A stretch of 64,000 nucleotides of DNA from a virus (lineage: Duplodnaviria > Heunggongvirae > Uroviricota > Caudoviricetes): IMG/VR virus record IMGVR_UViG_2974574029_000001, positions 31,424-95,423 of that record; one strand, written 5' to 3'. Within the stretch, counting starts at the first letter, position 1. Each line of letters starts with the position of its first letter. The position numbers were made by a program, and so were the translations under genes. The notes below the pieces were generated by a model. It ran no database searches. It was given only the letters and a program-made list of their open reading frames with translations, and was not told the origin of the DNA. Of this stretch, positions 6,768 through 57,022 are shown in pieces.

Positions 6768-7259
6768 CTATTCTCCTTTCAGGCGGAAAGATTTGATCGT
6801 GGTGATCAGGTCTTTCTCTGTTTGGGTGTAGTTGTGGACCACATTGCCCAACTCGTCACGGTACTGGTTAGCAATCTGCGGCCCTACGAGTTGGCCTGGT
6901 CGGTATACGAGATCCGTAACTTCCATGTATTGTGGGTTGTACATATACTCCGGCAGCACAACAGCAACTGCTGTCATTGCCCCGTTGAGAGCATCTTGTT
7001 CCTCACAAAAAGAGGCCCACGGGTAAGTGCCACTGAGAATCCCCAATTTTGAACAAAGGTCCTGTAAGTTTGACTGGTAACCACCATTAAGAACGATCAT
7101 CGTCTTATCTCTATCCGCCCAGTCCCACAACAGGTTGCTGGCCTTGTTCCTACGCTGTGGGTAGTCTAAGAACACTTCTGTCATGGCATGAGCAGACTGA
7201 ATTCCGGCATGGATACCTGCAATATACTGATTTACTACGCAATACATGCGTGTCTTCAT
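6768..7259 (-). CDS. hypothetical protein
   Basis: 163-aa ORF. Confidence 0.35.
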   Translation of the reverse strand: MKTRMYCVVNQYIAGIHAGIQSAHAMTEVFLDYPQRRNKASNLLWDWADRDKTMIVLNGGYQSNLQDLCSKLGILSGTYPWASFCEEQDALNGAMTAVAVVLPEYMYNPQYMEVTDLVYRPGQLVGPQIANQYRDELGNVVHNYTQTEKDLITTIKSFRLKGE

Positions 7260-7612
7260 TTTTCTTTCCTTTCTTTCACAAATTTACCAAGAAGGAATGC
7301 CCCTAATGCTAAGATAGCAACCCCCGCAACAAGCACAAGAAAAGGGAGCAATAGCACACCTATTGCGATCATTACTGGAAGGAATAATCCGCACATAACC
7401 GCAAGGAAAGCTGGCAGGCCATACTTATCCCAGATGGTATCATCTTCTGCCCGGTAACTGATACCAATTCCCAGCCCAGCTAGGAGGCTGAACACGAACA
7501 TAAGCAAGAATGCGTAATTGAAAATAAATGCCCACACGGGGAGCACAACATCATCGATATAATTCATTTTTCTATCCTTTTTTGAAGAACTCTGTGTATT
7601 TAAACATAGCAC
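7256..7612 (-). CDS. integral membrane protein
   Basis: 118 aa, mostly hydrophobic with 3-4 predicted helices. Confidence 0.35.
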   Translation of the reverse strand: MLCLNTQSSSKKDRKMNYIDDVVLPVWAFIFNYAFLLMFVFSLLAGLGIGISYRAEDDTIWDKYGLPAFLAVMCGLFLPVMIAIGVLLLPFLVLVAGVAILALGAFLLGKFVKERKEK

Positions 7613-7781
7613 CCTTGTAGCTTGGATGCAAGCGATAATTACAACCTTTTTCGATACACCAGTCTGTGGCCTTGTTACGCAGGGCTACTAAACCGCACCA
7701 TGCACAAACTTGCTTCCCTGCATGTTTGTCCAGAAAGAAATGATGTTTCTCGTAGGTGTACTCTTCTTTGTCCTTAGACAT
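7572..7781 (-). CDS. Cys-rich small protein
   Basis: Likely starts at MSKDKEEY, internal to track ORF 7572..7856; CAWCG...CIEKGC. Confidence 0.3.
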   Translation of the reverse strand: MSKDKEEYTYEKHHFFLDKHAGKQVCAWCGLVALRNKATDWCIEKGCNYRLHPSYKGAMFKYTEFFKKG

Positions 7782-40111: not shown

Positions 40112-40649
40112 GTATTTTCCTTACAATGTTGTGTATGAGGCTCTTGGAAACACCGTATTTTTTAGCCAAGGAAACCACCCCATGTGTTGATGATCCATAA
40201 ATATACTCATCCCTTATCTTTTCCTCAACCTCTGTAGAAAAAATAGTTTCTTTAGGCGTTGTTAATCCAAGTGAAAAGGCGTGTTCACTATTCTCTTTGG
40301 CAGTTACCCATTCGAGGTTATCCTTATGATTATTAAGCTTGTCACCGTCCTTATGATTAACAAAAGGAAGATTATCCGGATTTTCATGGAAGCAGATAGC
40401 AACACAGCGATGTACAAAATGTTTCGCAATGGTTCCATTCCTGCTCAAGAGCACACGTCTGTAACCATGAATGGAGGTCTCCCCGATTACTTCACATCCT
40501 TTCTTTATGTATCTAAAGTTTCCACTTTTAGAATAAATTGGTCGGGAATGTGAAAATAATCTACCATCATCTGTTACATAGTACAATCCTTCATATCCAG
40601 GTATGTCCTTAGTGACCATCTGCACTGTACTGCTCTTTTTCATCTGCAT
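40092..40649 (-). CDS. HNH homing endonuclease (NUMOD4 + HNH_3)
   Basis: YEGLYYVTDDGRLFS plus VNHKDGDKLNNHKDNLEWVTAKEN. Confidence 0.6.
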   Translation of the reverse strand: MQMKKSSTVQMVTKDIPGYEGLYYVTDDGRLFSHSRPIYSKSGNFRYIKKGCEVIGETSIHGYRRVLLSRNGTIAKHFVHRCVAICFHENPDNLPFVNHKDGDKLNNHKDNLEWVTAKENSEHAFSLGLTTPKETIFSTEVEEKIRDEYIYGSSTHGVVSLAKKYGVSKSLIHNIVRKIHAQQST

Positions 40650-46264: not shown

Positions 46265-46552
46265 ATGGAAAATCCATGCAAGTGGCATGAAGTCCCGGTA
46301 CGTGATTGCCTGACATGTAATAATACACCAACAAATCAATATTATATTAAGGAGCCTAAAATGTTTGGACCAGTAATGATGGAATGCAAAGTTTGCAAGA
46401 AAGAAGTTGAAGCAGACCTAGAAGCTCATGGCCCCGGTGTTTGCATCATCTCTTTCGGTTGTGGTCACCAGATGAATGCGAGCAAGGATAAGACAATCTG
46501 GATAAATACCAATACCGGGAAAATCGATCTCGAAGAGGTAGAGGGTGCGTAA
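46265..46552 (+). CDS. Cys-rich zinc-finger-like protein
   Basis: CLTC...CKVCKK...CIISFGCGH. Confidence 0.35.
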   Translation: MENPCKWHEVPVRDCLTCNNTPTNQYYIKEPKMFGPVMMECKVCKKEVEADLEAHGPGVCIISFGCGHQMNASKDKTIWINTNTGKIDLEEVEGA

Positions 46553-46757
46553 TTTAGTATCAAAAAACGATTTTAACAGGGCATCTGTTCATGAAGACCA
46601 AAAGAAGTCTTGGGTTCCTGATATTGAGGAAAGTCTTGATGAATATTACGATGATGACTGCGAATGGGAGACCGATGATGAGTTCATAGAGCGTATCAGA
46701 GCACTTTCCATATCCGAATACCGTCGTGGTGTCAATGACTCAGGCATCATGGATTGA
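46545..46757 (+). CDS. small acidic protein
   Basis: 70-aa ORF. Confidence 0.3.
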   Translation: MRNLVSKNDFNRASVHEDQKKSWVPDIEESLDEYYDDDCEWETDDEFIERIRALSISEYRRGVNDSGIMD

Positions 46758-46831
46758 CAAAAAAGGTGTCCGCTGGTAAGATTAAGTTATCAAAATAACT
46801 TGACTCTTAACAACTTACACGGTAGGACACT

Positions 46832-47077
46832 ATGTTTAAACTAAAACTCGTTTATAAATCTGATAACGGAGAGTATATTGAACACGAATCGAATCATAGG
46901 GAACTGGATGAAGCCACTGATGAAGCGGATGAGATCGCTTTTTCTACAACTGGTTTTGGAATTGAAGCCTGGAAATACGTTGCCTCCTTCGGTGAGGAAG
47001 GTGGATTGTACTATTTCTACCCCAATGATGAAGACCTCACAATCAAATACGCTCTCCGAATCTTCCGAACAGTTTAA
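46832..47077 (+). CDS. hypothetical protein
   Basis: 81-aa ORF. Confidence 0.3.
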   Translation: MFKLKLVYKSDNGEYIEHESNHRELDEATDEADEIAFSTTGFGIEAWKYVASFGEEGGLYYFYPNDEDLTIKYALRIFRTV

Positions 47078-47141
47078 GAATCGCAAACAACGCCGTGCTG
47101 AAGCGGCAATCAATCGTTCAAAACGAAAAGGAGCAAAACGA

Positions 47142-47261
47142 TGAAAGATGAATTTGACGGCTTTATTGGTTACGGTGAAGGAATTCGTCAGACTGAAGAT
47201 GTAGATTTTTTCGTTGGTTTCGGAGAGGGGATTTCTTCTGATGAGCGACCAGATCTCTAAT
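47142..47261 (+). CDS. small ORF (39 aa), hand-called
   Basis: AAAGGAGCAAAACG before the ATG; MKDEFDGFIGYGEGIRQTEDVDFFVGFGEGISSDERPDL. Confidence 0.2.
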
Positions 47262-47441
47262 TCTAATCACTGCATTGTATTCTCTGAAAGGGACTGGCCC
47301 AGTGAAAGCCTGCGTGGGATGTACTATCACAGGTCTTGCATTAGCTGTGGTAAGGAATACATAGGCCCTAAAAGAGAAATTTTCTGTTTTATTTGCGAGA
47401 ATAGTAAAAAAGACGTTGACAATGAAACAGGCAATCTATAA
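47241..47441 (+). CDS. zinc-ribbon small protein
   Basis: Start at MSDQIS after GGAGAGGGG; HC...CISC...CFIC. Confidence 0.3.
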   Translation: MSDQISNSNHCIVFSERDWPSESLRGMYYHRSCISCGKEYIGPKREIFCFICENSKKDVDNETGNL

Positions 47442-47465
47442 TATCTACCACATCAACAGTACAAC

Positions 47466-47538
47466 CGTTCAGTAGCTTAGTTGGTAGAGCATGTTCTTCA
47501 TACGGATAAGGTCAGTGGTTCAAGTCCACTCTGAACGA
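47466..47538 (+). tRNA. tRNA-Met (anticodon CAT)
   Basis: Acceptor CGTTCAG/CTGAACG, T-arm AGTGG-TTCAAGT-CCACT, anticodon loop TTCATAC; no encoded CCA. Confidence 0.75.
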
Positions 47539-47541
47539 TAA

Positions 47542-47619
47542 GGCCCTCAAGCTCATAAGGTATGAGCAATCGACTCATAATCGAGAGGTAGGTAGGTTCG
47601 AATCCTCCGGGGGTCACCA
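47542..47619 (+). tRNA. tRNA with CAT anticodon (Ile2/fMet-type), atypical
   Basis: Acceptor GGCCCTC/GGGGGTC (2 G-U pairs), D-arm GCTC/GAGC, loop CTCATAA, TTCGAAT T-loop, encoded CCA. One mismatch each in the anticodon and T stems. Confidence 0.45.
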
Positions 47620-47712
47620 ATTAAAAAATGTTGACGAGGATAATTGATTGAGTTAATATCCTCATGAACATAAACGGGAGAAATTCCCAAATAAAATGCA
47701 AAGGAGAAAATT

Positions 47713-48024
47713 ATGACTAAGAAAAATTCTACTAAGAAAGTATCTGCTATTGACGCTATCAAACAGCCTTTCCAGTTTGAGTCAAAGTCTACTCAGACGC
47801 ATTCTGCTCCGCATGATGTACGTCTGGGTGGTGTAGAGAAGACTGTTTCGGTATTTGATCGCCGTAAGGGTGAATACAAGTCAGAAACCCGCATTGAGGG
47901 TGGTCAGATTATCTCTGCATCTTACCGTGTTCGCACAGGTAAGACAAAACGTGAACGTGCTGGTAAAGTGAAGGAAGCTAAGGTTATTGAAACCGTAGCT
48001 CCAAATGGTAAGAAGAAAAAATAA
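47713..48024 (+). CDS. basic Lys-rich hypothetical protein inside the tRNA cluster
   Basis: 103 aa; AAGGAGAAAATT before the ATG. Confidence 0.4.
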   Translation: MTKKNSTKKVSAIDAIKQPFQFESKSTQTHSAPHDVRLGGVEKTVSVFDRRKGEYKSETRIEGGQIISASYRVRTGKTKRERAGKVKEAKVIETVAPNGKKKK

Positions 48025-48088
48025 TTCCTCCGGCATGGGGAACAATGACGATTCCGTGAAACGTCTTTAAAAACACGGATCTTATTTC

Positions 48089-48163
48089 GGGGTATTAACT
48101 CAGTGGTAGAGTAGCCGACTCTTAATCGGTTTGTCGAAGGTTCGAATCCTTCATGCCCCACCA
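48089..48163 (+). tRNA. tRNA-Lys (anticodon CTT)
   Basis: Clean cloverleaf: GGGGTAT/ATGCCCC, loop CTCTTAA, GAAGG-TTCGAAT-CCTTC, encoded CCA. Confidence 0.75.
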
Positions 48164-48165
48164 AA

Positions 48166-48270
48166 TTTGAAATGAGAGAGATACGGGTTCGACTCCCGTT
48201 CTTGCTGGCCCGGCTCGCGTAGTGGCACAGGGCGATAGCTTAAATGGACGAAAGTGCTCTCGTTTCAAAT
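48166..48270 (+). ncRNA. structured RNA element (13-14 bp closing stem around a T-arm-like hairpin)
   Basis: TTTGAAATGAGAG (48166-78) pairs with CTCTCGTTTCAAA (48257-69). Inside lie ACGGG-TTCGACT-CCCGT and a GGCCCGGC hairpin. Confidence 0.3.
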
Positions 48271-48291
48271 CGGAACCAAAAGGAGAACAAA

Positions 48292-48480
48292 ATGTTAGGG
48301 TCATTATTACGTATGGCTGGCGATATTGTTGGTACTGCTGTTGTTGTCACTGCAACTGTTGCAGAACCTTTTGTAGATGTAGCCGCAGAAGTTCTTGACG
48401 CCGCTGATGAGATGATTGTATCTCCTACCGCAGACGTCGTTGGTGAAGTTTGCGACTCCATTAAGGACGTTGTACGATGA
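48292..48480 (+). CDS. small hydrophobic/acidic protein
   Basis: Start at MLGSLLRMAGDIVG after AAAAGGAGAA. Confidence 0.35.
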   Translation: MLGSLLRMAGDIVGTAVVVTATVAEPFVDVAAEVLDAADEMIVSPTADVVGEVCDSIKDVVR

Positions 48481-48614
48481 GTGGCGGTGTTATCTTTATC
48501 ATCATGTCAGTGATCTCTTTCCTGCTTGTTCTTTGGTATTATTGGTCATGGTTTGAAAACAACCCTACCATCGAAGAAATAGTCAAAGATTCGCTTGACA
48601 AACACAATCTGTAA
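48477..48614 (+). CDS. small single-pass membrane protein (45 aa), hand-called
   Basis: ATGA overlap with upstream ORF; MSGGVIFIIMSVISFLLVLWYYWSWFENNPTIEEIVKDSLDKHNL. Confidence 0.3.
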   Translation: MSGGVIFIIMSVISFLLVLWYYWSWFENNPTIEEIVKDSLDKHNL

Positions 48615-48655
48615 GTGTAGTATTTAAAACCTAATTTAACGCAAAGGAGAACTTA

Positions 48656-49267
48656 ATGACTGATTCTAAAACTGTAATTTCCGTAACTGAACGTGCCACT
48701 AAAGCAGTAACCACTGCCGCTACTGGTCTGACTAAGGTAGTCGCTGAACTGCAATCTCTGGCAGAAGGGTCTGAACAGATCAGCCAGGAAATTCAGTTTA
48801 AGCAGCAGGAACTGGGACAAATTGAAGTTCAGTTCAACGAAAAACTGGCTGAAGAAAAATCCAAGCTGAAGATCAAAGTTCTGGAAAACGAAGATTCCGT
48901 TCTTAACTCTATCCTGAAAGCTCGCGGCCTTGTAGCTGTAGAACCGGGTGTTGTTGACGAACTTCGTGCAGAGCTGGCTACCTCTCAGCAGAACAATGCT
49001 GAAGCTGTAGAAAGCGCAGTTGCCGACGTTAAACGTAGTGCTGCAATTGAACTGAATGCGGTTAAGGCAAATCTGGAGTCTGCTCACAAGGTTGCAATTG
49101 CAGAACTTACTGCGAACAGCAAGGCTAAGGATGACCGTATTGCAATGCTGACTGAGCAGCTTGAAGCAGCGCGTGGCGATCTGAAGGCTGAACGCGAAAC
49201 CCGTCTGGAAATCGCAAAAGCGGACGCTAACCGCCAAGGCGTAGTTGTCAATACTGGCAAAAACTAA
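48656..49267 (+). CDS. coiled-coil protein (paralog A)
   Basis: 203 aa, Ala/Glu/Lys-rich heptads; GCAAAGGAGAA RBS context shared with the next gene. Confidence 0.45.
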   Translation: MTDSKTVISVTERATKAVTTAATGLTKVVAELQSLAEGSEQISQEIQFKQQELGQIEVQFNEKLAEEKSKLKIKVLENEDSVLNSILKARGLVAVEPGVVDELRAELATSQQNNAEAVESAVADVKRSAAIELNAVKANLESAHKVAIAELTANSKAKDDRIAMLTEQLEAARGDLKAERETRLEIAKADANRQGVVVNTGKN

Positions 49268-49275
49268 TACGTAGT

Positions 49276-49301
49276 GCCGACATGGATGTCGGCTAATTTT
49301 T
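49276..49301 (+). terminator. rho-independent terminator
   Basis: GCCGACA-TGGA-TGTCGGC followed by TAATTTTT. Confidence 0.55.
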
Positions 49302-49344
49302 GAAGTTCATTAAAATTTAAAATTTATTGCAAAGGAGAATATTT

Positions 49345-49992
49345 ATGACTACCAAGATTTCTGTGACTCGTGCTCTGGCAACTCTTTCTAAGATCGAAGA
49401 CAAGATCACGAAACGCATTAACACCCTGGAAACCATCCACGTTGCTCGCGGTGAAGGTGACCGTAAGGCAATCCCAGGTTCTCTGGCTTCTGTATCTGCT
49501 TTCGAAAGCGCAGCGGTTTCTGACTTCCAAGGTCTTGTTGACTTGATGAAAGTTCGTGATGAACTGAAAGCTGCGGTAGTACAGTCCAACGCAGTTACCA
49601 AGGTAACTGTCGGTGGTGTTGAGATGACTGTCGCTCAGGCTATCGAGCGCAAGCGTACAATCGTCTTTAATGAGCAACTGCTTGCTAAACTGATTGCTCA
49701 GTACAATCATGGCAAGATTCTCCTTAAGAAAGAGAATAGCGATTTTGAGATGAAGCTGGAACAGGCTCGCGCACCTTACATCAGTCGTGATAAGGCACCT
49801 GATCCAGAGCAGATCAAGACCGTTGAAGCTCCGGTCCGTCTGATGGGTACTCCGAGCATCGTTGATCCGCTTAATTTGGCAGTTCGCATTCGTTCTCTGG
49901 AAGCAGAGATTGAAGACTTTAAGTCTAACGTTGACTTTGTTCTTTCCGAGTCAAATGCACGGACTGAAGTAGAGATTGAAGGATCAATCTAA
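49345..49992 (+). CDS. coiled-coil protein (paralog B)
   Basis: Start at MTTKISV after GCAAAGGAGAATATTT; similar N-terminus and composition to 48656..49267. Confidence 0.45.
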   Translation: MTTKISVTRALATLSKIEDKITKRINTLETIHVARGEGDRKAIPGSLASVSAFESAAVSDFQGLVDLMKVRDELKAAVVQSNAVTKVTVGGVEMTVAQAIERKRTIVFNEQLLAKLIAQYNHGKILLKKENSDFEMKLEQARAPYISRDKAPDPEQIKTVEAPVRLMGTPSIVDPLNLAVRIRSLEAEIEDFKSNVDFVLSESNARTEVEIEGSI

Positions 49993-50382
49993 AATATCTT
50001 CAGGAATTCTTGATTAACCTCTTGTAATTCCTGCGGATAGCTGGTAAAGTTTTTAAATGCTGTTTTTGGTTAGCGAAGTCAGAAACATCTTGCCTCTACC
50101 GGGGCCGGAGGTTAAACTGCTCCGAACATAATCATATAGGATGATACTTAAACGTATGTTTCCGCAGACCATACATCTGCCGAAATTGTCGAATCGCGAA
50201 TTCGAAAGACTTCAAAATTCAACACTCAAAGATTATCGTTCAAAGCTTAATGTTTAAACTTGAAACTTCTAAACCGTAAAGTTAAAATTTCTTTGATTAC
50301 TTAAATCCTGGATATAGGATCTTAGCTCACAAGATATGGCTAACTGACTCCTCCAGGCTGTTAATCGGAAACAGTATGCTTC

Positions 50383-50457
50383 GCTCTCATCGTATAATGG
50401 CTATTACAGCGGCTTTGTAACCCGTTAATCTCTGTTCGATTCAGTGTGGGAGCACCA
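50383..50457 (+). tRNA. tRNA-like, possible tRNA-Thr (anticodon TGT), degenerate
   Basis: Acceptor GCTCTCA/TGGGAGC (one G-U), loop TTTGTAA, TTCGATT T-loop, CCA. One mismatch each in the D, anticodon and T stems. Abuts the HNH start codon. Confidence 0.3.
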
Positions 50458-50850
50458 ATGTTTATTTGTCTTTGTTGCAAAAAAGAATGTAAAATAAAGA
50501 AAAACACCTTATCTAAATATTGTTCTAATAAGTGCCAGAGAGATTACGAATACAAGGCTAGGGTCGAGTCTTGGCTGAGAGGGGAATATCTTGGATACAC
50601 GGGGAAGACAGCTCAAATAGCAAACTTCGTGAGAAGATACCTCTTAGAGACAAGAGGAGAGAAATGTGAGTCTTGTGGTTGGAGTAAACGACATCCGGTA
50701 GACGGGGCTATTCTTCTTGAGATTGACCATATTGATGGGGATGCTAGGAACTGTGAGCCTTCTAATCTTAAGATACTTTGTCCTAACTGCCACGCTATGA
50801 CACCTACATTTAGGGCAAGAAACAAGATATCCAGTAGGATAAGAAAATAA
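50458..50850 (+). CDS. HNH endonuclease
   Basis: CESCGWSKRHPVDGAILLEIDHIDGDARNCEPSNLKILCPNCHAM. ATG directly follows the CCA of the tRNA-like element. Confidence 0.55.
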   Translation: MFICLCCKKECKIKKNTLSKYCSNKCQRDYEYKARVESWLRGEYLGYTGKTAQIANFVRRYLLETRGEKCESCGWSKRHPVDGAILLEIDHIDGDARNCEPSNLKILCPNCHAMTPTFRARNKISSRIRK

Positions 50851-51146
50851 CCAATGCCGGGTAAGCGGTTTGTCAACTGCGGGGTCCCTCCAGACCTGAA
50901 AAATACGCCAAAAATAATAGTACGGCTAAATACATAGGTGGTTAGATTCCACCACCCGGCTCCAAATCTATTTTGCGAGGTTCTGAAACACTTAAAATCT
51001 CCTGCATCTAATGGGATGTGATCTCTGTGTCAGCTCTTATATCAAGTTGATGAAAGGGATGGCGTAGGCTCTGCTTCGCAAGCAGGGGCGCTTCGGGGAG
51101 ACAACGGCGGTTGTCATGACATCGGAACTTCACAAAATAGATTTCT

Positions 51147-51235
51147 GCGGGATTGGTGGTATTGGCAGTACACACGAGGCTTAAGACTTCGTAGGCCTCT
51201 TGGCCTTGAGGGTTCGAATCCCTCATCCCGCACCA
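51147..51235 (+). tRNA. tRNA-Leu (anticodon TAA)
   Basis: GCGGGAT/ATCCCGC, loop CTTAAGA, long variable arm AGGCC-TCTT-GGCCT, GAGGG-TTCGAAT-CCCTC, CCA. Confidence 0.75.
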
Positions 51236-51312
51236 GAATTATGGGGTACTTAACCGATAACACTCCCGGCTTCCAACGCGTGGGGGAGTGCGGAGAGTCC
51301 CCGCCAAATACA

Positions 51313-51388
<76 letters not shown>

Positions 51389-51393
51389 AAAAA

Positions 51394-51467
51394 GCGCGGT
51401 TGCTGGAGTGGTAACAGCTTTCTCTGCAAAAGAAATGTCAGGTGTTCGATTCGCCTACCGTGCTCCA
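51394..51467 (+). tRNA. tRNA-Cys (anticodon GCA)
   Basis: GCGCGGT/ACCGTGC, D-stem GCTG/CAGC, anticodon stem TTTCT/AGAAA, loop CTGCAAA, AGGTG-TTCGATT-CGCCT, CCA. Confidence 0.65.
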
Positions 51468-51552
51468 AGTTGTTGAATATTTTTATAAAAAATGATAAAA
51501 TAGCCCTTGACAGATAAATTTAAATCTGATAACATTAATAAGTGGGGTTATT

Positions 51553-51903
51553 ATGGCAGTAAAACAACAACTTACAAAGCGTCGTAGAGGAAAAGGTAGA
51601 CCTCTTAAAGAAGAGTCTAATGCTATTCAGCTTGAGAAGAATATCCTTGACCTTAAGACCAATATGATTGCTATGATTCCTGATGCTCATAAAGTGCTAA
51701 AAGACCTTATGACAAGTGCCACAACAAAGGACAATATCAGGGAAAATATTGCTCGATTTGTAATTGAGAAAGGTGAACAAATGCTTTCTGATTACTTCGA
51801 TGAAGAGAATGAAGAAGCTGAAACAACTAATGTTGATGATAAGAAATCTACTCCTATGAGTAAGCCATTCACAACAGATATTGTTCAGTTCAAACAAGGT
51901 TAA
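51553..51903 (+). CDS. hypothetical protein inside the tRNA cluster
   Basis: 116 aa with a basic N-terminus and acidic C-terminus. Confidence 0.35.
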   Translation: MAVKQQLTKRRRGKGRPLKEESNAIQLEKNILDLKTNMIAMIPDAHKVLKDLMTSATTKDNIRENIARFVIEKGEQMLSDYFDEENEEAETTNVDDKKSTPMSKPFTTDIVQFKQG

Positions 51904-51905
51904 AT

Positions 51906-51992
51906 GCGTCGTTAGACCGTAGGGGTAGCGGGACAGACTGTAAATCTGTTGCTCAAAAGGCTCGGGTAGTTCGACTCTATCACGGCGCACCA
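51906..51992 (+). tRNA. tRNA-Tyr (anticodon GTA)
   Basis: GCGTCGT/ACGGCGC, anticodon stem ACAGA/TCTGT, loop CTGTAAA, long variable arm, GGTAG-TTCGACT-CTATC, CCA; 87 nt. Confidence 0.7.
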
Positions 51993-51998
51993 ATTAAT

Positions 51999-52073
51999 GG
52001 GAGTATAGTTCAGCGGTAGAACGCTCGACCGATAATCGAGAGGTCTCTGGTTCGATCCCAGATACTCCCACCA
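51999..52073 (+). tRNA. tRNA-Ile (anticodon GAT)
   Basis: GGGAGTA/TACTCCC, GTTC-AGCGGTA-GAAC, loop CCGATAA, TCTGG-TTCGATC-CCAGA, CCA. Confidence 0.8.
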
Positions 52074-52082
52074 ATATAACTA

Positions 52083-52157
52083 GAGGCCGTAGTATAGCGG
52101 GAATTATGACTGGCTTCCACCCAGTAGATGAGAGTTCAATTCTCTCCGGTCTCTCCA
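52083..52157 (+). tRNA. tRNA-Gly (anticodon TCC)
   Basis: GAGGCCG/CGGTCTC, ACTGG-CTTCCAC-CCAGT, GAGAG-TTCAATT-CTCTC, CCA. Confidence 0.75.
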
Positions 52158-52172
52158 ACTTCAAGAGGCTCC

Positions 52173-52691
52173 ATGAAAGAGTTGTGGAAAGATGTTGAAG
52201 GATATGAGGAATTCTTCATGATAAGCAATCTTGGAAACCTCTATAGTAAAAGAAGTTTTAGGTGTCTTAAACTGAGTACGTTGCCCTCTGGATATGTGCA
52301 ACACACTACGAGGATTGGTGGTAGAGGCGGCAGATATGTTGCATTTCGTATACACCGTCTTGTGGCAAAAGCTTTTATCAGTAATCCTGAAGGGAAGCCA
52401 GAGGTTAATCATAAAAATGGCAACAAAAGTGATAATAGGGTAAGTAATCTTGAATGGGTAACCCCATCTGAAAATGTTCGTCATGCTTTCGATACAGGTT
52501 TATCAAAAGCCAGAAGTGGTATTTACAATAGTAGAAGTAAACTTTCCATCTCTCAAGTTGAAGAGATAAGAGAAAGAAGACTACAAGGTGAAACATGCAG
52601 GTCTCTTGCTGAAGAGTTTTGTGTTCACCATATGCAGATTTCGAGAATCTGTAGGGGAGTCTCTTACAAAACAAATGCTCCTATCGGCTAA
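52173..52691 (+). CDS. HNH homing endonuclease (NUMOD4 + HNH_3)
   Basis: MKELWKDVEGYEEFFMISNLGNLYS and VNHKNGNKSDNRVSNLEWVTPSEN. Start at the internal ATG 16 nt after the tRNA-Gly CCA. Confidence 0.6.
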   Translation: MKELWKDVEGYEEFFMISNLGNLYSKRSFRCLKLSTLPSGYVQHTTRIGGRGGRYVAFRIHRLVAKAFISNPEGKPEVNHKNGNKSDNRVSNLEWVTPSENVRHAFDTGLSKARSGIYNSRSKLSISQVEEIRERRLQGETCRSLAEEFCVHHMQISRICRGVSYKTNAPIG

Positions 52692-52752
52692 ATGGACAGG
52701 CCGTCATACTTTCAATCTGGAAATCCGAGTTCGATCCTCGGTGGGAGTGCCA
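52677..52752 (+). tRNA. tRNA-like remnant (acceptor stem + T-arm + CCA, no convincing D/anticodon arms)
   Basis: GCTCCTA (inside the HNH 3-prime end) pairs with TGGGAGT. CCGAG-TTCGATC-CTCGG T-arm and CCA present. 76 nt, but the internal region does not fold as a cloverleaf. Confidence 0.25.
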
Positions 52753-52758
52753 AATAAT

Positions 52759-52862
52759 GGGTATCTAAGGCGAATTGGAAAACGCCCGGTGAAGTGGGTG
52801 CGCACCTTGTAGCTCACTGGCATACTTGCTGAGGTTCGTTCGAATCGGACTGATGCCCACCA
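52759..52862 (+). tRNA. over-long (104 nt) tRNA-like gene
   Basis: Perfect 7-bp acceptor pairing GGGTATC/GATGCCC, D-arm-like GGCG-N10-CGCC, T-arm GTTCG-TTCGAAT-CGGAC, discriminator A and CCA. Roughly 30 nt of extra internal sequence; no anticodon assignable. Confidence 0.25.
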
Positions 52863-52874
52863 AACAATGTGCGG

Positions 52875-52949
52875 GTAACTTAATTGCTCCGGGAGCAAGC
52901 TGGTCTCCAAAGCCAGTCGTAAGGGGTTCGACTCCTCACCTTCATGCCA
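52875..52949 (+). tRNA. tRNA-like with Trp-type anticodon arm (CCA anticodon) but unpaired acceptor
   Basis: D-arm TTGC-TCCGGGA-GCAA, anticodon arm CTGGT-CTCCAAA-GCCAG, T-arm AGGGG-TTCGACT-CCTCA and terminal GCCA all lie at canonical spacing. The 5-prime and 3-prime ends do not base-pair. Confidence 0.25.
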
Positions 52950-53104
52950 GATAATGGGGGCGACCGGATGTTGAAAATGACTATGATCTACCGCTGCAAC
53001 GGGAAATCTTGTCGGTCATAAGTAAGCATGGCGGCAACAAAATAAGCTGAGGATTGCAGTCCGATACTTAGCCTGGCTCGGTTTCAGGCGCCCTCACCGA
53101 TTGT

Positions 53105-53180
53105 AGGGAGATGGTGTAATTGGTTAGCACACGGGTCTTTGAAATCCGTAGTTCAGGTTCAAGTCCTGATCTCCCTGCCA
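53105..53180 (+). tRNA. tRNA-Gln (anticodon TTG)
   Basis: AGGGAGA/TCTCCCT, GTGT-AATTGGTTA-GCAC, CGGGT-CTTTGAA-ATCCG, TCAGG-TTCAAGT-CCTGA, CCA. Confidence 0.75.
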
Positions 53181-53372
53181 AGTTTTAGTGTTTTCTTTTG
53201 AGAATACTCATGCGTGGCCTAAGCATTTATCAGATGATGTTCAACCTGTGACGTTGAGGAAGTGGGAGCGATACCCACAGGTCACCCCAAATTGCAGATA
53301 CGTGAACATCTCTAACTTCCCCTTAATTGGTTCTAGTCGAGATTTTCGTTTATACGTTATCTGCCGCGATTT

Positions 53373-53464
53373 GGTGGAATGGTCGAGAGGTTTAAGACAG
53401 CATCTTGGAAAGATGTCGGCCCCTTAACAGGGGTCCGTAGGTTCGAATCCTACTTCCACCGCCA
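53373..53464 (+). tRNA. tRNA-Ser (anticodon GGA)
   Basis: GGTGGAA/TTCCACC, GCATC-TTGGAAA-GATGT, long variable arm GGCCCC-TTAACA-GGGGTC, GTAGG-TTCGAAT-CCTAC, CCA; 92 nt. Confidence 0.7.
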
Positions 53465-53479
53465 CTTTATGGAGGGTTC

Positions 53480-53638
53480 ATGCAGAAGCTATTGCGTTGT
53501 AAGAAAGTGTTTGGTCGTTGCAAACTCCACGGAAGTAACTGTGGTGTTGCTGAAGAGATTCAATCTATTCCGATCACTCGCGCAAAAGAGAAAATGGATC
53601 TTCGTAAAGAGATTAAAGAACAATTGGAAGATTGGTGA
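53480..53638 (+). CDS. small Cys-containing protein (52 aa), hand-called
   Basis: GGAGGG RBS; MQKLLRCKKVFGRCKLHGSNCGVAEE... The stop overlaps the start of the next tRNA. Confidence 0.3.
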   Translation: MQKLLRCKKVFGRCKLHGSNCGVAEEIQSIPITRAKEKMDLRKEIKEQLEDW

Positions 53639-53711
53639 AATGGTAGCCACAGCGGTTTGCTAAACCGCCATCCGAAAGGGTGTGCAAGTTCAACCCTTGC
53701 ATCTTCCGCCA
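53626..53711 (+). tRNA. tRNA-Ser (anticodon GCT)
   Basis: GGAAGAT/ATCTTCC, GCGGT-TTGCTAA-ACCGC, long variable arm, GCAAG-TTCAACC-CTTGC, CCA. Confidence 0.7.
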
Positions 53712-53735
53712 AAACAACAAGGAGGAACAAATCGA

Positions 53736-54182
53736 ATGGCGACGAAAACTGTTTTGAAAACAGCCGAGCATGATGAGTGCCTTGGGAGTTCAACTCTCCC
53801 TTCCTCCGCCAAATATTGCAATGGGTGCGCAACAACGTATCCAATAAGCGAGTTCTACACGATAGGTAAGTACAAAGACAAAATGAAATATAAACCTTTG
53901 TGCAAACGTTGTGAGAATAAACGCAGAAAAGAAAGGAATCTTGAGATAATCAAGGAAGTGTTTGGAGAAAATCTCTGCTGCTCATCTTGTGGATATGACA
54001 AGTGCTTTGCTGCTCTTGACTTCCATCATGTAGATGCAGAATCGAAAGACTTCAATATCGCTAAGATGCTACTTGGGACGCCAGCAAAAGAGAAGCTGGC
54101 AGCAGAATTGAAGAAGTGTATGATTCTTTGTGCGAATTGTCACAGGGAGCACCACGCAGAAGAAAGATTATCGGATAGGTAG
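53736..54182 (+). CDS. HNH endonuclease
   Basis: Start at MATKTVLK after AAGGAGGAAC; Cys-rich CNGC...CKRC...CSSCGYDKC and ILCANCHREHH. Confidence 0.55.
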   Translation: MATKTVLKTAEHDECLGSSTLPSSAKYCNGCATTYPISEFYTIGKYKDKMKYKPLCKRCENKRRKERNLEIIKEVFGENLCCSSCGYDKCFAALDFHHVDAESKDFNIAKMLLGTPAKEKLAAELKKCMILCANCHREHHAEERLSDR

Positions 54183-54248
54183 CCGAGCGGTCAGGCATTC
54201 GCCTTTTAAGCGAAGAGACGATGGGTTCAAATCCCTCCCTTCCCACCA
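54173..54248 (+). tRNA. tRNA-like, degenerate (Ser/Leu-type D-loop; TTT in anticodon position)
   Basis: GCCGAGCGGTCAGGC D-loop typical of type II tRNAs. TTCGC-CTTTTAA-GCGAA anticodon arm, GGG-TTCAAAT-CCC, CCA. The acceptor (5/7 pairs) and T-stem (3/5) pair poorly. Confidence 0.3.
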
Positions 54249-54372
54249 AATTAAATTAGTTAAAATAATTCTTGCAAAAAGTTGTTTTGACTGATAAAGT
54301 AAATACTCGATAGGGGTAAAGAGACGGCACTCTCCCTGTGACGCTGAAAGATGCAGGCCGACGAACACAAAT

Positions 54373-54457
54373 GACGAGCTGGTTCATTGGTAGAACGGCG
54401 GACTGTTAATCCGCGAGCATTAGCTCTATGTAGGTTCAATTCCTACGCTCGTCGCCA
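54373..54457 (+). tRNA. tRNA-Asn (anticodon GTT) with an unusual extended variable arm
   Basis: Perfect acceptor GACGAGC/GCTCGTC, GTTC-ATTGGTA-GAAC, GCGGA-CTGTTAA-TCCGC, 15-nt variable arm containing GAGC-ATTA-GCTC, GTAGG-TTCAATT-CCTAC, CCA. Confidence 0.6.
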
Positions 54458-54464
54458 ACTTTAT

Positions 54465-54541
54465 GGGGCCGTGACTGACAAGGTAATGGTGCCGCACTGT
54501 CGATGCGGAAAATGAGGGTTCGATCCCCTTCGGTCCCGCCA
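54465..54541 (+). tRNA. tRNA-Asp (anticodon GTC)
   Basis: GGGGCCG/CGGTCCC, CCGCA-CTGTCGA-TGCGG, GAGGG-TTCGATC-CCCTT, CCA. Confidence 0.7.
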
Positions 54542-54682
54542 ATTTGATATGTTGATGTAAATTGCAGGAATGCACTCAAAATGAGTTCGGCATATCAAAC
54601 CAATTGTACCCGAAATGGGCTTGATATTAGCTAGCCAGCGATACCAGTTGCAGTATCTGGGATAATTAAAATTCTGCACCTT

Positions 54683-54760
54683 CGGAGCGTAGCGCAGTCT
54701 GGTCAGCGTGGGTGCCTTGGATGCACTGGGTCGCAGGTTCGAATCCTGCCGCTCCGACCA
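54683..54760 (+). tRNA. tRNA-Pro (anticodon TGG)
   Basis: CGGAGCG/CGCTCCG, GGTGC-CTTGGAT-GCACT, GCAGG-TTCGAAT-CCTGC, CCA. Confidence 0.75.
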
Positions 54761-54766
54761 CTTTTA

Positions 54767-54842
54767 GCAGGTATAGTTCAACTGGACAGAGCATCAGTTT
54801 ACGAAGCTGAGAATCGGGGTTCGAATCCCTGTACTTGCACCA
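54767..54842 (+). tRNA. tRNA-Arg (anticodon ACG)
   Basis: GCAGGTA/TACTTGC, TCAGT-TTACGAA-GCTGA, CGGGG-TTCGAAT-CCCTG, CCA. Confidence 0.7.
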
Positions 54843-54846
54843 ACAT

Positions 54847-54922
54847 GGGGCTGTAGTTTATTTGGATAAAATCACAGGCTTGCACCTTGTAGAACTGAGT
54901 TCGATTCTCAGTGGCTCCACCA
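54847..54922 (+). tRNA. tRNA-Ala (anticodon TGC)
   Basis: GGGGCTG/TGGCTCC (G-U rich), ACAGG-CTTGCAC-CTTGT, CTGAG-TTCGATT-CTCAG, CCA. Confidence 0.65.
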
Positions 54923-55025
54923 AAAGAAGGCTGAGATTTCTTCGTGACCTCAGCGTTAAATAGTCCTCAAGCATCATTTCGGTGGTGAGCTTCTCGGGTA
55001 GCGCCCGGTTAATGAGGCAATATAC

Positions 55026-55112
55026 GGGCAAGTGGCGGAATTGGTAGACGCACTGGATTTAGGTTCCAGCGCCCATCGTGGTGTGAGAGTTCGAGTCTCT
55101 CCTTGCCCACCA
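55026..55112 (+). tRNA. tRNA-Leu (anticodon TAG)
   Basis: GGGCAAG/CTTGCCC, GCG-GAATTGGTAGA-CGC, CTGGA-TTTAGGT-TCCAG, long variable arm, GAGAG-TTCGAGT-CTCTC, CCA. Confidence 0.75.
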
Positions 55113-55209
55113 TAAAGAATAGTCAGACTCTGGTTGAATGTGAGTAGGGTTGAGTAGGCGTACTCAATGTGGATTCCGATACTGGAGTCACGCGAGTTTC
55201 TGACTATCT

Positions 55210-55285
55210 GGGGTTGTAGCTCAGTTGGTAGAGCACCTGATTGAAGATCAGGGTGTCGGTGGTTCGAGTCCACCCGGCCCCACCA
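55210..55285 (+). tRNA. tRNA-Phe (anticodon GAA)
   Basis: GGGGTTG/CGGCCCC, GCTC-AGTTGGTA-GAGC, CCTGA-TTGAAGA-TCAGG, GGTGG-TTCGAGT-CCACC, CCA. Confidence 0.8.
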
Positions 55286-55498
55286 AACAATGTCCTTTGG
55301 GAAGCGTAACTGCCTTATGGCTCGTGGCAAGACTCAGGGGTGTTTTTGACAACACCGAGGGCACCTTTCAATTGCGTGGTAGTGAAATGGATATATAGAT
55401 CACGCTGGCCTCATAAGCCGGAAATTGCTTGTTCAACTCAAGCTCACGCATCCAAATTCTAATAACAATAAATTATTATATCTCCTCTCCTTTGCCTC

Positions 55499-55526
55499 GC
55501 CCCGCTCTTGCGGGGCTTTTCTTTTT
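55499..55526 (+). terminator. rho-independent terminator closing the tRNA cluster
   Basis: GCCCCGC-TCTT-GCGGGGC followed by TTTTCTTTTTCT. Confidence 0.65.
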
Positions 55527-55565
55527 CTGGTACACTCTAAAAGTAACTTACTAAAGGAGACCAGA

Positions 55566-55715
55566 ATGATCCACACTTACGATAAAAATGAACACCTTCG
55601 AGAATACCGCCTGCTTAAAAGCTTCTTTGCTGATGATATCTATCATATCCTCCGTAGTCTTGATGTGATGATCGCCGGAGGTCCATCACCGCCCTCTTTA
55701 CCAACCGAGAAGTGA
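55566..55715 (+). CDS. small protein (49 aa)
   Basis: AAAGGAGACCAGA before the ATG; MIHTYDKNEHLREYRLLKSFFADDIYHILRSLDVMIAGGPSPPSLPTEK. Confidence 0.35.
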   Translation: MIHTYDKNEHLREYRLLKSFFADDIYHILRSLDVMIAGGPSPPSLPTEK

Positions 55716-57022
55716 ATGATCTTGACCTGTACTTTCGTTCATGGGACGACATGGAGATCTTCATTACCTATATGATGGATATAGAACTTCGGAAAGGAGA
55801 GCATGACCTTACCACCAAAACTATGGGGTATAATGAACAGAAGCGTGTTTATCGTGATTTCTTCACCTTGGACAATGGGAAGGATGTGTGGGAAGCGCGT
55901 ACTCCCCGATTGAAAGTTCTTTCTCACCGAGTCTCCAAAGAGGAAGTTTCTCAAATGGAAGACGAGTTTGTAAAAGATTGTCCTTTTGAGTTGTCAAATC
56001 TCTCAGAGTCAACTTGGAGCGGTATTAGAAAATTACTTGATGACCGGAAGAAGAAGGTTTCAAGTGTCCGGCAGATTGGCATGACAGACAAGAGCGTTAT
56101 GTTCTCAGAAGGATCTAATCCTGTGATGCAGTGTATTGCTTTCTCTGTGTTTGACAATGCAGAGGAGGTCTTTGATAAGTTCGACTACACGATCAATATG
56201 GGGGCATTCTATTTTGGTGATGAGACGTGGGTTTTTGACAGTCGCTTTCTTAAACACGCCGCACAGAAAGTATTAGTGCTCAACCCGGCTACTGACTATC
56301 CAATTATCAGTATGCTCCGCGCTTCTAAATATGAAGCACGTGGGTATACAATCTCCCGTCGTGAGATAATGAAGTTAGGTGTTGCAGCCGCAGGACTTAA
56401 AATGGAAAGCTGGGAAGATGCTAAAAAGCATCTGAGCGGTATGTATGGGACCAATGTTGAAGAACTCTTTGATACAAAAGAACCGTTTTCATTTGAGAAA
56501 TTATTTGATAAACTGGATAACGCAGGGGATATTGCTATCAGTACGATTGCGACTATCACCGACAAACGAGAAGGCCAACGTCGTTTCAATCTTGAAGCGA
56601 AAGATATCTTTAATGTTTTCCAGCGCCTTCGTAAAAACACCGATCGCCAGTATTTCAAGGAATTCTGGGCAGTATCTAGTGCTGCACATTTTTACATGAT
56701 GCAAGCTCATACCGAGAAACACGTATTCGGTCTGAACAGCAACAGCATCGATAATCCAAAAATGTTGGATAAGATTAGGATTTATTTTGATCTTGATGCT
56801 GCCAAAGAGAGATACGAACTCTTGCGTAAAGATGGGGTGAAAGGAAGTTTTCACGTAGAGGAGATTGAGCCTGGAGCTTGCCTCTTTAAGGTTGACGTGG
56901 AAGACCCGCTTGTCCTTGAATACGAGAGTGATGGTAGAGTATCTGTAAACCGAGAAGATAAAGTGCCTCGAAATAAAGTGACCATTGTTGAATTATTAGA
57001 TTGTGATGGGGATCTCTCATGA
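55712..57022 (+). CDS. hypothetical protein (436 aa)
   Basis: Long ORF with a GTG start overlapping the upstream stop (GTGA). Its frame is open for about 14 codons upstream, so a frameshift fusion with 55566..55715 is possible. Confidence 0.4.
   Translation: MNDLDLYFRSWDDMEIFITYMMDIELRKGEHDLTTKTMGYNEQKRVYRDFFTLDNGKDVWEARTPRLKVLSHRVSKEEVSQMEDEFVKDCPFELSNLSESTWSGIRKLLDDRKKKVSSVRQIGMTDKSVMFSEGSNPVMQCIAFSVFDNAEEVFDKFDYTINMGAFYFGDETWVFDSRFLKHAAQKVLVLNPATDYPIISMLRASKYEARGYTISRREIMKLGVAAAGLKMESWEDAKKHLSGMYGTNVEELFDTKEPFSFEKLFDKLDNAGDIAISTIATITDKREGQRRFNLEAKDIFNVFQRLRKNTDRQYFKEFWAVSSAAHFYMMQAHTEKHVFGLNSNSIDNPKMLDKIRIYFDLDAAKERYELLRKDGVKGSFHVEEIEPGACLFKVDVEDPLVLEYESDGRVSVNREDKVPRNKVTIVELLDCDGDLS

Follow-up and report, generated by a model that had tools for sequence, protein, structure and literature searches.

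Background

Homing endonuclease genes that stand free among transfer RNA (tRNA) genes have been described in phages T4 and T5. In T4, the homing endonuclease SegB is encoded in the tRNA cluster, cuts the tRNA genes of SegB-less relatives and drives co-inheritance of the tRNA region; moreover, the segB stop codon abuts tRNA-Arg, so that tRNA maturation cuts the mRNA, and this processing was proposed to limit expression (PMC2330249). For T5, the part of that source that deals with F-TflI/II/IV describes them as free-standing HNH open reading frames (ORFs) within the phage tRNA cluster and likewise proposes that precursor processing limits their expression (PMC2330249). Here we analyze the tRNA array of Raoultella phage Ro1, as contained in a 64,000-nucleotide (nt) stretch of tailed-phage DNA (positions 31,424 to 95,423 of IMG/VR record IMGVR_UViG_2974574029_000001; this whole stretch is “the window”, and all coordinates are counted from its first letter unless another phage is named), in which three free-standing HNH genes (HNH1, HNH2 and HNH3) lie among about 26 tRNA genes.

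The T4 species I and II RNAs have tRNA-like ends. They are small stable RNAs at the end of the T4 tRNA cluster, longer than a tRNA, co-transcribed and of no known function (PMC2330249). Irregular tRNAs, such as (8/4) tRNAs and allo-tRNAs with a long D-stem resembling that of tRNA-Sec, occur in phage tRNA clusters, where the (8/4) forms reported are of the Ser and His types (Mukai et al., PMC5389517).

Three HNH genes in a mosaic tRNA array

Positions 47400-55500 of the window are 100% identical to Raoultella phage Ro1 (MG250486.1 / NC_048682.1), a myovirus of the Vequintavirinae, genus Mydovirus. This identity corrects an earlier sequence-only reading of the stretch, which had assumed a T5-like phage (Demerecviridae). 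The array is syntenic with those of Mydovirus, Seunavirus and Henunavirus. The nearest relatives, Klebsiella and Proteus mydoviruses, align at ~92-94% identity over only 47-69% of the region. Thus the region is a mosaic.

The three HNH ORFs (Table 1) proved to be real genes, each encoding a recognised HNH nuclease domain. They lie between tRNA genes, and Rfam returned no intron family at E<=1 in 46500-56500. Close relatives that are otherwise collinear differ in whether a given locus holds its HNH gene, and within Mydovirus six inter-tRNA slots bear an HNH gene in one phage or another (Thr/X, Tyr/Ile, Gly/Glu, Ser-UGA/Lys, Asn/Asp and Pro/Arg). Relative to HNH-less mydoviruses, the alignment stops at 50377 and resumes at 50851 around HNH1, stops at 52077-52079 and resumes at 52669 around HNH2, and stops at 53633 and resumes at 54173-54224 around HNH3. 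Therefore every replaced block pairs a tRNA gene with an HNH gene 3' of it. Each HNH gene sits immediately 3' of a foreign or replaced tRNA allele (Thr, Gly and Ser-UGA respectively); in total the Thr, Gly, Ser-GCT and Ser-UGA alleles have been replaced, with breakpoints at the cassette ends. Moreover, homologues of all three HNH genes sit in tRNA arrays of unrelated phages.

Judged from their sequences, three free-standing HNH homing-endonuclease genes have thus colonised the tRNA operon region of Ro1. That HNH homing and gene conversion remodel the array had already been proposed from the letters alone; the idea is borne out by the slots, the breakpoints, the replaced alleles and an HNH gene (HNH1) at a tRNA position, while the evidence then offered for it, a set of supposedly damaged tRNA genes, fell away (see below).

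HNH1 and HNH2 are linked to foreign tRNA alleles

The ATG of HNH1 follows the CCA of tRNA-Thr directly (0 nt), and a Shine-Dalgarno-like GGGAG lies in the 3' acceptor strand of that tRNA, 5 nt ahead of the ATG. Ro1 tRNA-Thr matches its counterparts at 41/75 positions in its own genus, 50/75 in Seunavirus and 59/75 in jumbo phage CBB, which marks it, by sequence, as a foreign allele linked to HNH1. All relatives compared carry a second tRNA (“tRNA-X”) after Thr; in Ro1, HNH1 takes exactly that place and extends to the final bases of the displaced tRNA. This alignment makes HNH1 the one clear Ro1 case in which a tRNA has been replaced by an HNH gene. Among the Vequintavirinae of the phage collection, HNH1 was found in Ro1 alone. 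With the C-terminal part of GAP32_373, itself 3' of a tRNA-Thr, it shares 62% identity, and its homologues lie 3' of tRNA-Thr(UGU) in three lineages: GAP32, CBB (remnant only) and EC.P1. In Pfam, HNH1 scored 23.1 bits with HNH_3, just under the cut-off, and its match to Pfam HNH was also below cut-off.

In Klebsiella phage NDO71, an HNH gene (phrog_23251; positions 7033-7638 of that phage) lies between tRNA-Lys(TTT) and tRNA-Asp, with no tRNA-Asn detected; this would be the second such case, with an HNH gene in the place of an expected tRNA.

HNH2 exceeded the Pfam cut-offs of both HNH_3 (43.5 bits; cut-off 24.8) and NUMOD4 (35 bits; cut-off 23.4) and matched I-HmuI (PDB 1U3E) at E=6e-18, and is by these matches a clear member of the I-HmuI-like family. 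HNH1 and HNH3, compared with solved structures, gave marginal McrA matches or none. HNH2 starts 15 nt past the end of tRNA-Gly; thus the close spacing of both HNH1 and HNH2 to the preceding tRNA, pointed out in the sequence-only reading, was confirmed. In DNA-level comparison HNH2 occurs only in Ro1; its closest homologues are located between Glu and Gly in ChuuTotoro and within the tRNA arrays of Ab15 and EC.P1. Ro1 tRNA-Gly is ~57% identical to every Vequintavirinae tRNA-Gly compared and 84-88% identical to tRNA-Gly of T4-like phages, from which it can be read as a foreign allele linked to HNH2. No relatives of HNH2 were found beside the Ro1-like tRNA-Gly genes of the T4-like phages X20 and Moon.

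Further HNH2-like (I-HmuI-type) coding is present in the window at 40113-40625 (- strand) and 2947-3177 (+ strand), one of the two with 32% identity over 177 amino acids (aa) and the other a weaker match.

HNH3 starts inside a tRNA-Ser(UGA)-like gene

HNH3, 99% identical to a “putative HNH endonuclease” of phage DP, overlaps tRNA sequence at both ends. Its final 10 nt overlap tRNA-Lys(TTT), and its sole possible start codon (ATG, 53736) lies in the D-loop of the 91-nt tRNA-Ser(TGA)-like element, with codons 1-25 reaching the CCA end of that element. Its Shine-Dalgarno sequence, AAGGAGG, is made of the 5' acceptor strand of the element plus the two preceding bases. That HNH3 begins within a tRNA-like gene is the most unusual trait of the array. 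With G73 and a long variable arm, the element shows two features expected of a serine tRNA; its D-arm is minimal, and it is the sole Ser-UGA candidate in Ro1.

The same 91-nt element is fused to an HNH ORF in six lineages, with either an ATG or a TTG start and with different neighbouring tRNAs; carriers beyond Ro1 are DP, Hena1 (in which the ORF has decayed), Cronobacter phage PBES 02 and three metagenomic contigs. In family members that lack the tRNA-overlapping extension, the protein begins directly with the first CxxC motif. Identity between lineages is 92-95% across the 75 nt of overlap, with only 2-3 of 25 third codon positions differing, while the rest of the ORF is 62-69% identical. Such superior conservation of the overlap points to constraint at the RNA level. 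In the covariation analysis, 96.5% of cells were paired and two pairs were compensatory, yet, with so few variable sites, this did not exceed shuffled controls.

The Ser-UGA allele of Ro1 is 100% identical to that of DP, which has HNH3, and 26-44% identical to those of HNH3-less mydoviruses. Just upstream, tRNA-Ser(GCT) shows 50-57% identity to the relatives compared, and homology ends at 53633. HNH3 itself is found in Ro1, DP, KPP-1, KpS11 and the K54 series, is missing from Mydo, VLCpiM5b, VIK251 and NDO71, and is decayed in Hena1.

Two HNH3 homologues, P0003 and P0008, have predicted terminal extensions that resemble translated tRNA arms (“AQLVER”, “GSNP”, “REFESR”). Gene callers evidently run such HNH ORFs into adjoining tRNA genes in other phages as well.

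The tRNA-like elements after HNH2 are shared by relatives that lack it

Three elements following HNH2 (at 52677, 52759 and 52875) had been taken for tRNA genes damaged by their HNH neighbours. The one at 52677-52752, thought to have no foldable core, is an ordinary tRNA-Glu(TTC): it is reported by ARAGORN at default settings, has a full cloverleaf with a 7-nt anticodon loop and scores 44.1 bits in Rfam (gathering score of the tRNA model, RF00005, 29 bits). With its 3' end the HNH2 ORF does overlap the first 15 nt of this tRNA, as the sequence-only reading stated. A Ro1-private T52707 opposite C52717 breaks one anticodon-stem pair where other relatives have G, and the Rfam score is ~11 bits below that of phage Mydo's copy (relatives, 54.9-61.8 bits). 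The gene is carried by relatives with or without HNH2, and is 97% identical in mydoviruses without it.

The third element, said to have unpaired termini, had been read out of register. Its true span is 52869-52949, with 6 of 7 acceptor pairs formed (C4 opposite U69 being the mismatch), a CCA anticodon in a 7-nt loop and a D-arm of a 6-bp stem and a 3-nt YGG loop. It gave no RF00005 match at E<=1, and matched only the tRNA-Sec model (27.3 bits; gathering score 47). We compared six versions of it (Ro1, NDO71, PVP-SE1, UPEC06, Av-05 and one IMG/VR contig). The D-stem is 100% paired in all six, with two-sided changes at four of its six pairs. Taken over the entire cloverleaf, pairing holds in 93% of cells and seven pairs are compensatory, a result reached by 0/500 shuffles (slid controls paired at 41-52%). 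Each of the six could form an 8-bp acceptor and a 4-bp T-stem; the eighth pair would join T8 to A or G at column 71 and varies one-sidedly. Thus, given its compensatory changes and kept helices, this element is a maintained atypical tRNA-Trp and not a damaged gene.

Between these two lies the 104-nt element (E104), which exists as first described. It carries about 14-17 surplus nt in the anticodon domain; ARAGORN reported it only in intron mode (with a 14-nt insert) and Rfam gave no match. In its flanks it is similar to Leu- and Tyr-type class II tRNAs. E104 is 99-100% identical in 26 mydovirus records, whether or not HNH2 is there, and neither of the two substitutions observed disrupts a pair; NDO71, PVP-SE1 and EC152 (the relative of EC.P1) lack the element. 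Searches for diverged homologues, with the distant mode on the phage collection and with a D-arm pattern on IMG/VR, returned only near-identical mydovirus copies and unrelated tRNA D-arms. From its sequence, E104 may be an insertion-bearing, Tyr/Leu-derived pseudo-tRNA or a genus-wide tRNA-like RNA.

The stretch that holds E104 and tRNA-Trp (52753-52960) is 99.5-100% identical in mydoviruses without HNH2. All three elements therefore have the same form where HNH2 is missing, and the proposal that HNH genes damaged them largely fails. Only E104 could be an insertion-damaged tRNA, in a state that is fixed in the genus and not linked to HNH2.

Further irregular tRNA-like RNAs lie elsewhere in the array. 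Directly 3' of HNH1 is the 109-nt Y109, with a 7-bp acceptor, a 6-bp D-stem with a tetraloop (resembling tRNA-Sec or allo-tRNA), a T-arm, a 5-bp anticodon stem whose 6-nt loop is not conserved in sequence, and a variable region of ~40 nt. It is conserved in four genera (Mydovirus, Seunavirus, Henunavirus and Avunavirus), with compensatory changes at 8 of 23 pairs; its homologue in Erwinia phage Hena1 is annotated as tRNA-sup(tca) and reaches 39 bits with Rfam's tRNA-Sec model. The tRNA-His(GTG) has a T-loop of AGCGATA, a D-loop without GG and no encoded G-1, and would thus miss the usual D-loop/T-loop contacts; its conservation from Mydovirus to Seunavirus is 95-100%, one pair being compensatory, and EC152 and Hena1 have canonical alleles at this slot. 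At the position of the 155-nt Trp-Gln spacer, Seunavirus (137 nt in GAP31) and Hena1 (132 nt, ending in ACCA) hold different structured elements with T-arm-like hairpins.

Matching every tRNA of ten relatives against the Ro1 spacers with blastn-short revealed no decayed tRNA remnants except an orphan T-arm (48184-48198). This hairpin was matched as a T-arm alone, and no rest of a tRNA is recognisable around it.

Extent and signals of the array

The array runs from 47466 to 55454 on the + strand (Table 1). ARAGORN at default settings found 21 tRNAs, all on the + strand between 47466 and 55285 and the same 21 as in the public record; Rfam confirmed these and raised two more above the gathering score (47542-47616, 42.3 bits; 55373-55451, 48.7 bits). 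The + strand holds 26 copies of a strict T-arm motif, always within 47.5-55.4 kb and far above chance, with no copy elsewhere in the 64-kb window and none on the - strand. The array is thus composed of about 26 tRNA genes (21 canonical, two extra CAT genes, and the atypical Trp, His and Ser-UGA genes), plus a few longer tRNA-like RNAs.

All 18 tRNA names listed in the sequence-only reading were recovered, and its doubtful CAT gene at 47542 is real, being above the Rfam gathering score and annotated in relatives (as tRNA-Met or tRNA-Ile). That list had passed over Thr(TGT) and Lys(TTT) and miscalled Glu. Also absent from it were the third tRNA(CAT), which lies beyond the range it covered, tRNA-His, the Ser(TGA)-like element and the 109-nt RNA. 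The third tRNA(CAT) shows compensatory changes in the T-stem and acceptor stem across genera, and the terminator of the array comes next. Among the canonical genes, tRNA-Arg(TCT) is intact in Ro1 and broken or absent in several other mydoviruses. No promoter-like site as strong as those 5' of the tRNAs was seen directly 5' of the HNH genes. Public annotation of this RefSeq phage is incomplete here: HNH2 and HNH3 are missing from it, as are five or more tRNA genes and a number of tRNA-like RNAs.

Table 1. Features of the Ro1 tRNA array (window coordinates)
Feature	Position	Strand	Evidence or remark
Promoter-like site TTGACA-17-TAATAT, just 5' of the first tRNA	47416..47444	+	10/12 consensus match only
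tRNA-Met(CAT)	47466..47538	+	ARAGORN; Rfam 62.6 bits
Second tRNA(CAT), Met or Ile2 type, unannotated in record	47542..47619	+	Rfam 42.3 bits; relaxed ARAGORN
tRNA-Lys(CTT)	48089..48163	+	ARAGORN; Rfam 71.2 bits
Orphan T-arm hairpin ACGGG TTCGACT CCCGT	48183..48199	+	20 nt past tRNA-Lys(CTT); conserved in mydoviruses
Promoter-like site 5' of tRNA-Thr	50260..50288	+	10/12 matches
tRNA-Thr(TGT)	50383..50457	+	ARAGORN; Rfam 47.1 bits
HNH1, 130-aa zinc-finger HNH endonuclease gene	50458..50850	+	phrog_1271 E=7e-22; RefSeq: HNH endonuclease
Y109, tRNA-like RNA of 109 nt, unannotated, directly 3' of HNH1	50856..50964	+	
tRNA-Leu(TAA)	51147..51235	+	ARAGORN; Rfam
tRNA-Arg(TCT)	51313..51388	+	ARAGORN; Rfam
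tRNA-Cys(GCA)	51394..51467	+	ARAGORN; Rfam
tRNA-Tyr(GTA)	51906..51992	+	ARAGORN
tRNA-Ile(GAT)	51999..52073	+	ARAGORN; Rfam
tRNA-Gly(TCC)	52083..52157	+	ARAGORN; Rfam 60.5 bits
HNH2, 172-aa I-HmuI-like HNH endonuclease, unannotated in record	52173..52691	+	NUMOD4 + HNH_3 + helix-turn-helix
tRNA-Glu(TTC)	52677..52752	+	ARAGORN default; Rfam 44.1 bits
E104, tRNA-like element of 104 nt	52759..52862	+	7-bp acceptor stem, D-arm, T-arm, ACCA end
Atypical tRNA-Trp(CCA)	52869..52949	+	relaxed ARAGORN; annotated tRNA-Trp in PVP-SE1
Trp-Gln spacer, 155 nt	52950..53104	+	tRNA-like closing stem GGGGGCG/CGCCCTC, then ACCG; identical in mydoviruses compared
tRNA-Gln(TTG)	53105..53180	+	ARAGORN; Rfam
Atypical tRNA-His(GTG), unannotated in record	53214..53289	+	relaxed ARAGORN
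tRNA-Ser(GGA)	53373..53464	+	ARAGORN; Rfam
tRNA-Ser(GCT), replaced allele 5' of HNH3 cassette	53626..53711	+	ARAGORN; Rfam
tRNA-Ser(TGA)-like element, 91 nt	53721..53811	+	relaxed ARAGORN; Rfam tRNA-Sec model 30.5 bits
HNH3, 148-aa HNH endonuclease, unannotated in record	53736..54182	+	phrog_2255 E=1.6e-34
tRNA-Lys(TTT)	54173..54248	+	ARAGORN; Rfam
tRNA-Asn(GTT)	54373..54457	+	ARAGORN; Rfam
tRNA-Asp(GTC)	54465..54541	+	ARAGORN; Rfam
tRNA-Pro(TGG) 54683-54760, tRNA-Arg(ACG) 54767-54842, tRNA-Ala(TGC) 54847-54922	54683..54922 (block)	+	ARAGORN; Rfam
tRNA-Leu(TAG)	55026..55112	+	ARAGORN; Rfam
tRNA-Phe(GAA)	55210..55285	+	ARAGORN; Rfam
Third tRNA(CAT), 82 nt, 14-nt D-loop, unannotated in record	55373..55454	+	Rfam 48.7 bits
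Intrinsic-terminator-like hairpin, closes the array after the last tRNA	55499..55525	+	7 G-C pairs, then T-run

Discussion

The HNH genes very probably colonised the array by intronless homing, and the “degenerate” elements are not products of these insertions. Such homing could proceed as follows: i) in co-infection, the nuclease would nick or cut an HNH-less allele in or beside the tRNA gene; ii) recombinational repair would copy the HNH gene together with the linked, presumably cleavage-resistant tRNA allele (intronless homing with co-conversion); iii) translation of the HNH genes probably uses the tRNA precursor transcript, since they lack a strong promoter of their own; iv) tRNA folding and RNase P-type processing would compete with translation and keep nuclease levels low. 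For HNH1 and HNH3 the ribosome-binding site (RBS) is placed in an acceptor strand, and for HNH2 and HNH3 the stop codon falls inside the next tRNA, suggesting that tRNA maturation limits nuclease synthesis, by the reasoning already put forward for T4 segB and T5 F-TflI/II/IV (PMC2330249).

A more far-reaching reading, which we hold only tentatively and would not back at even odds, joins these observations: the tRNA-Ser(UGA)-like gene and HNH3 would form one composite mobile cassette, tRNA genes would serve as both landing site and linked cargo, and the irregular tRNAs would be kept. In such a cassette a working tRNA would hold the RBS, the start and codons 1-25 of the homing endonuclease that belongs to it, and one transcript would be either folded and processed to a tRNA or translated to the nuclease, with a replacement tRNA supplied for the displaced one. 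More widely, HNH1 would travel with tRNA-Thr and HNH2 with tRNA-Gly between the arrays of unrelated phage families, while the same arrays would maintain the 8/4-like tRNA-Trp, a tRNA-His without D/T-loop contacts and the allo-tRNA-like Y109.

Several observations weigh against intronless homing as the full account. Mosaicism is found also at slots that are HNH-less in Ro1, such as Tyr and Pro-Arg-Ala, and general recombination therefore contributes too. In particular, the Pro-Arg-Ala region (54626-54955) is 94% identical to Seunavirus GAP31 and EC152 and 38-83% identical to its own genus (38-75% outside Pro relative to NDO71), a pattern that suggests between-genus exchange of a block that is HNH-free in Ro1. 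As for the Thr and Gly alleles, their apparent donors come from other phage families and share no flanking homology; simple homing from these donors is thus not straightforward. HNH3 remained below the Pfam gathering score (HNH, E=0.013) and reached no curated Pfam or NCBIfam cut-off. HNH1 aligns with just the C-terminal third of its PHROG profile, and, from that alignment, may be a reduced or inactive form. Could the mosaic, then, have arisen mainly from ordinary homologous recombination at conserved tRNA sequences, with the HNH genes as passengers or decaying relics? The Tyr allele (100% identical to DP, 34-53% to others), the Pro-Arg-Ala block, the decay of HNH3 in Hena1, the mere remnant of an HNH1 homologue in CBB and the shortness of HNH1 relative to its family profile would all fit, and ordinary recombination could explain part of the pattern. 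As the main cause we nevertheless consider it unlikely, since the class of the upstream tRNA allele goes with the presence of an HNH gene at three slots (Thr, Ser-UGA and Asn), the breakpoints fall exactly at the HNH cassette ends, the same HNH lineages recur beside the same kind of tRNA in unrelated phages (HNH1 after tRNA-Thr in three lineages), and the three Ro1 ORFs are intact with catalytic motifs kept.

More doubtful still is the view that nearby HNH genes, through insertions, deletions or gene conversion, have recently damaged tRNA genes at 52677, 52759 and 52875. It can draw on the 15-nt overlap of HNH2 with tRNA-Glu, on the private base change and lowered score of that tRNA, and on the likeness of E104 to a class II tRNA with a 14-nt insertion, but it has to face the near-identity of all three elements in HNH2-less mydoviruses, the default ARAGORN call and sufficient Rfam score at 52677, the compensatory changes of the Trp element in six lineages and the lack of detectable decayed tRNA remnants in the Ro1 spacers. 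Least probable of all, and hardly credible in our estimate, is that the HNH proteins are not selfish and serve the phage itself, in packaging with the nearby terminase or in attack on tRNA genes of hosts or competitors. HNH proteins assist terminases in some phages, and in relatives the array is followed, a few kb further downstream, by the terminase gene; yet each HNH gene is missing from otherwise collinear close relatives, and none is therefore essential, and HNH2 resembles I-HmuI, of a family of homing nickases. Colonisation by intronless homing thus remains the preferred explanation of the HNH genes in the Ro1 array.

So understood, the locus is a clear natural example of selfish endonuclease genes reshuffling phage tRNA arrays. 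For evolution, it offers six slots in one genus, tRNA alleles swapped in from other phage families and one tRNA replaced outright. The tRNA-Ser-like gene with its HNH3 overlap offers a compact setting in which to study possible competition between tRNA maturation and translation on one transcript, while the covarying tRNA-Trp and Y109 are candidates for study as irregular phage tRNAs. In the literature searched, no description was found of an endonuclease ORF that starts inside a conserved tRNA-like gene or of a covarying irregular tRNA-Trp.

Comparison with known systems

The Ro1 array is a case of free-standing homing endonuclease genes in a phage tRNA cluster, a kind already known, and leaves the general picture drawn from T4 SegB and T5 F-Tfl unchanged. 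The likeness to T5 F-Tfl lies in free-standing HNH ORFs within a tRNA cluster and in the proposed limit on their expression by precursor processing. Ro1 belongs to the Vequintavirinae and is not T5-like; features of Ro1 relative to T5 are the linkage of HNH genes to replaced tRNA alleles and the start of HNH3 inside a tRNA-like gene. The abutment of the segB stop codon and a tRNA in T4 is comparable to the overlaps of HNH2 (15 nt) and HNH3 (10 nt) with their downstream tRNAs. However, SegB is a GIY-YIG enzyme of experimentally shown activity, whereas the Ro1 genes are of the HNH type with predicted activity. HNH2 aligns with residues 5-110 of I-HmuI from Bacillus phage SPO1, and the two proteins are of similar length (172 vs 174 aa) and share the same layout of NUMOD4, HNH_3 and C-terminal helix-turn-helix; on the other hand, I-HmuI is encoded in a group I intron of the DNA polymerase gene, while HNH2 stands free between tRNA-Gly and tRNA-Glu.

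As for the RNAs, Ro1 tRNA-Trp resembles the known irregular tRNAs in its 6-bp D-stem, tiny loop and possible 8-bp acceptor with 4-bp T-stem, and Y109 does so in its 6-bp D-stem, tetraloop and long variable region. They differ in that the phage (8/4) tRNAs reported are of Ser and His rather than Trp type, that Ro1 tRNA-Trp has no long variable arm, and that Y109 has a 7/5 structure with a 6-nt anticodon loop. Finally, the predicted RNAs of E104, Y109 and the 155-nt spacer would occupy positions comparable to those of the T4 species I and II RNAs.

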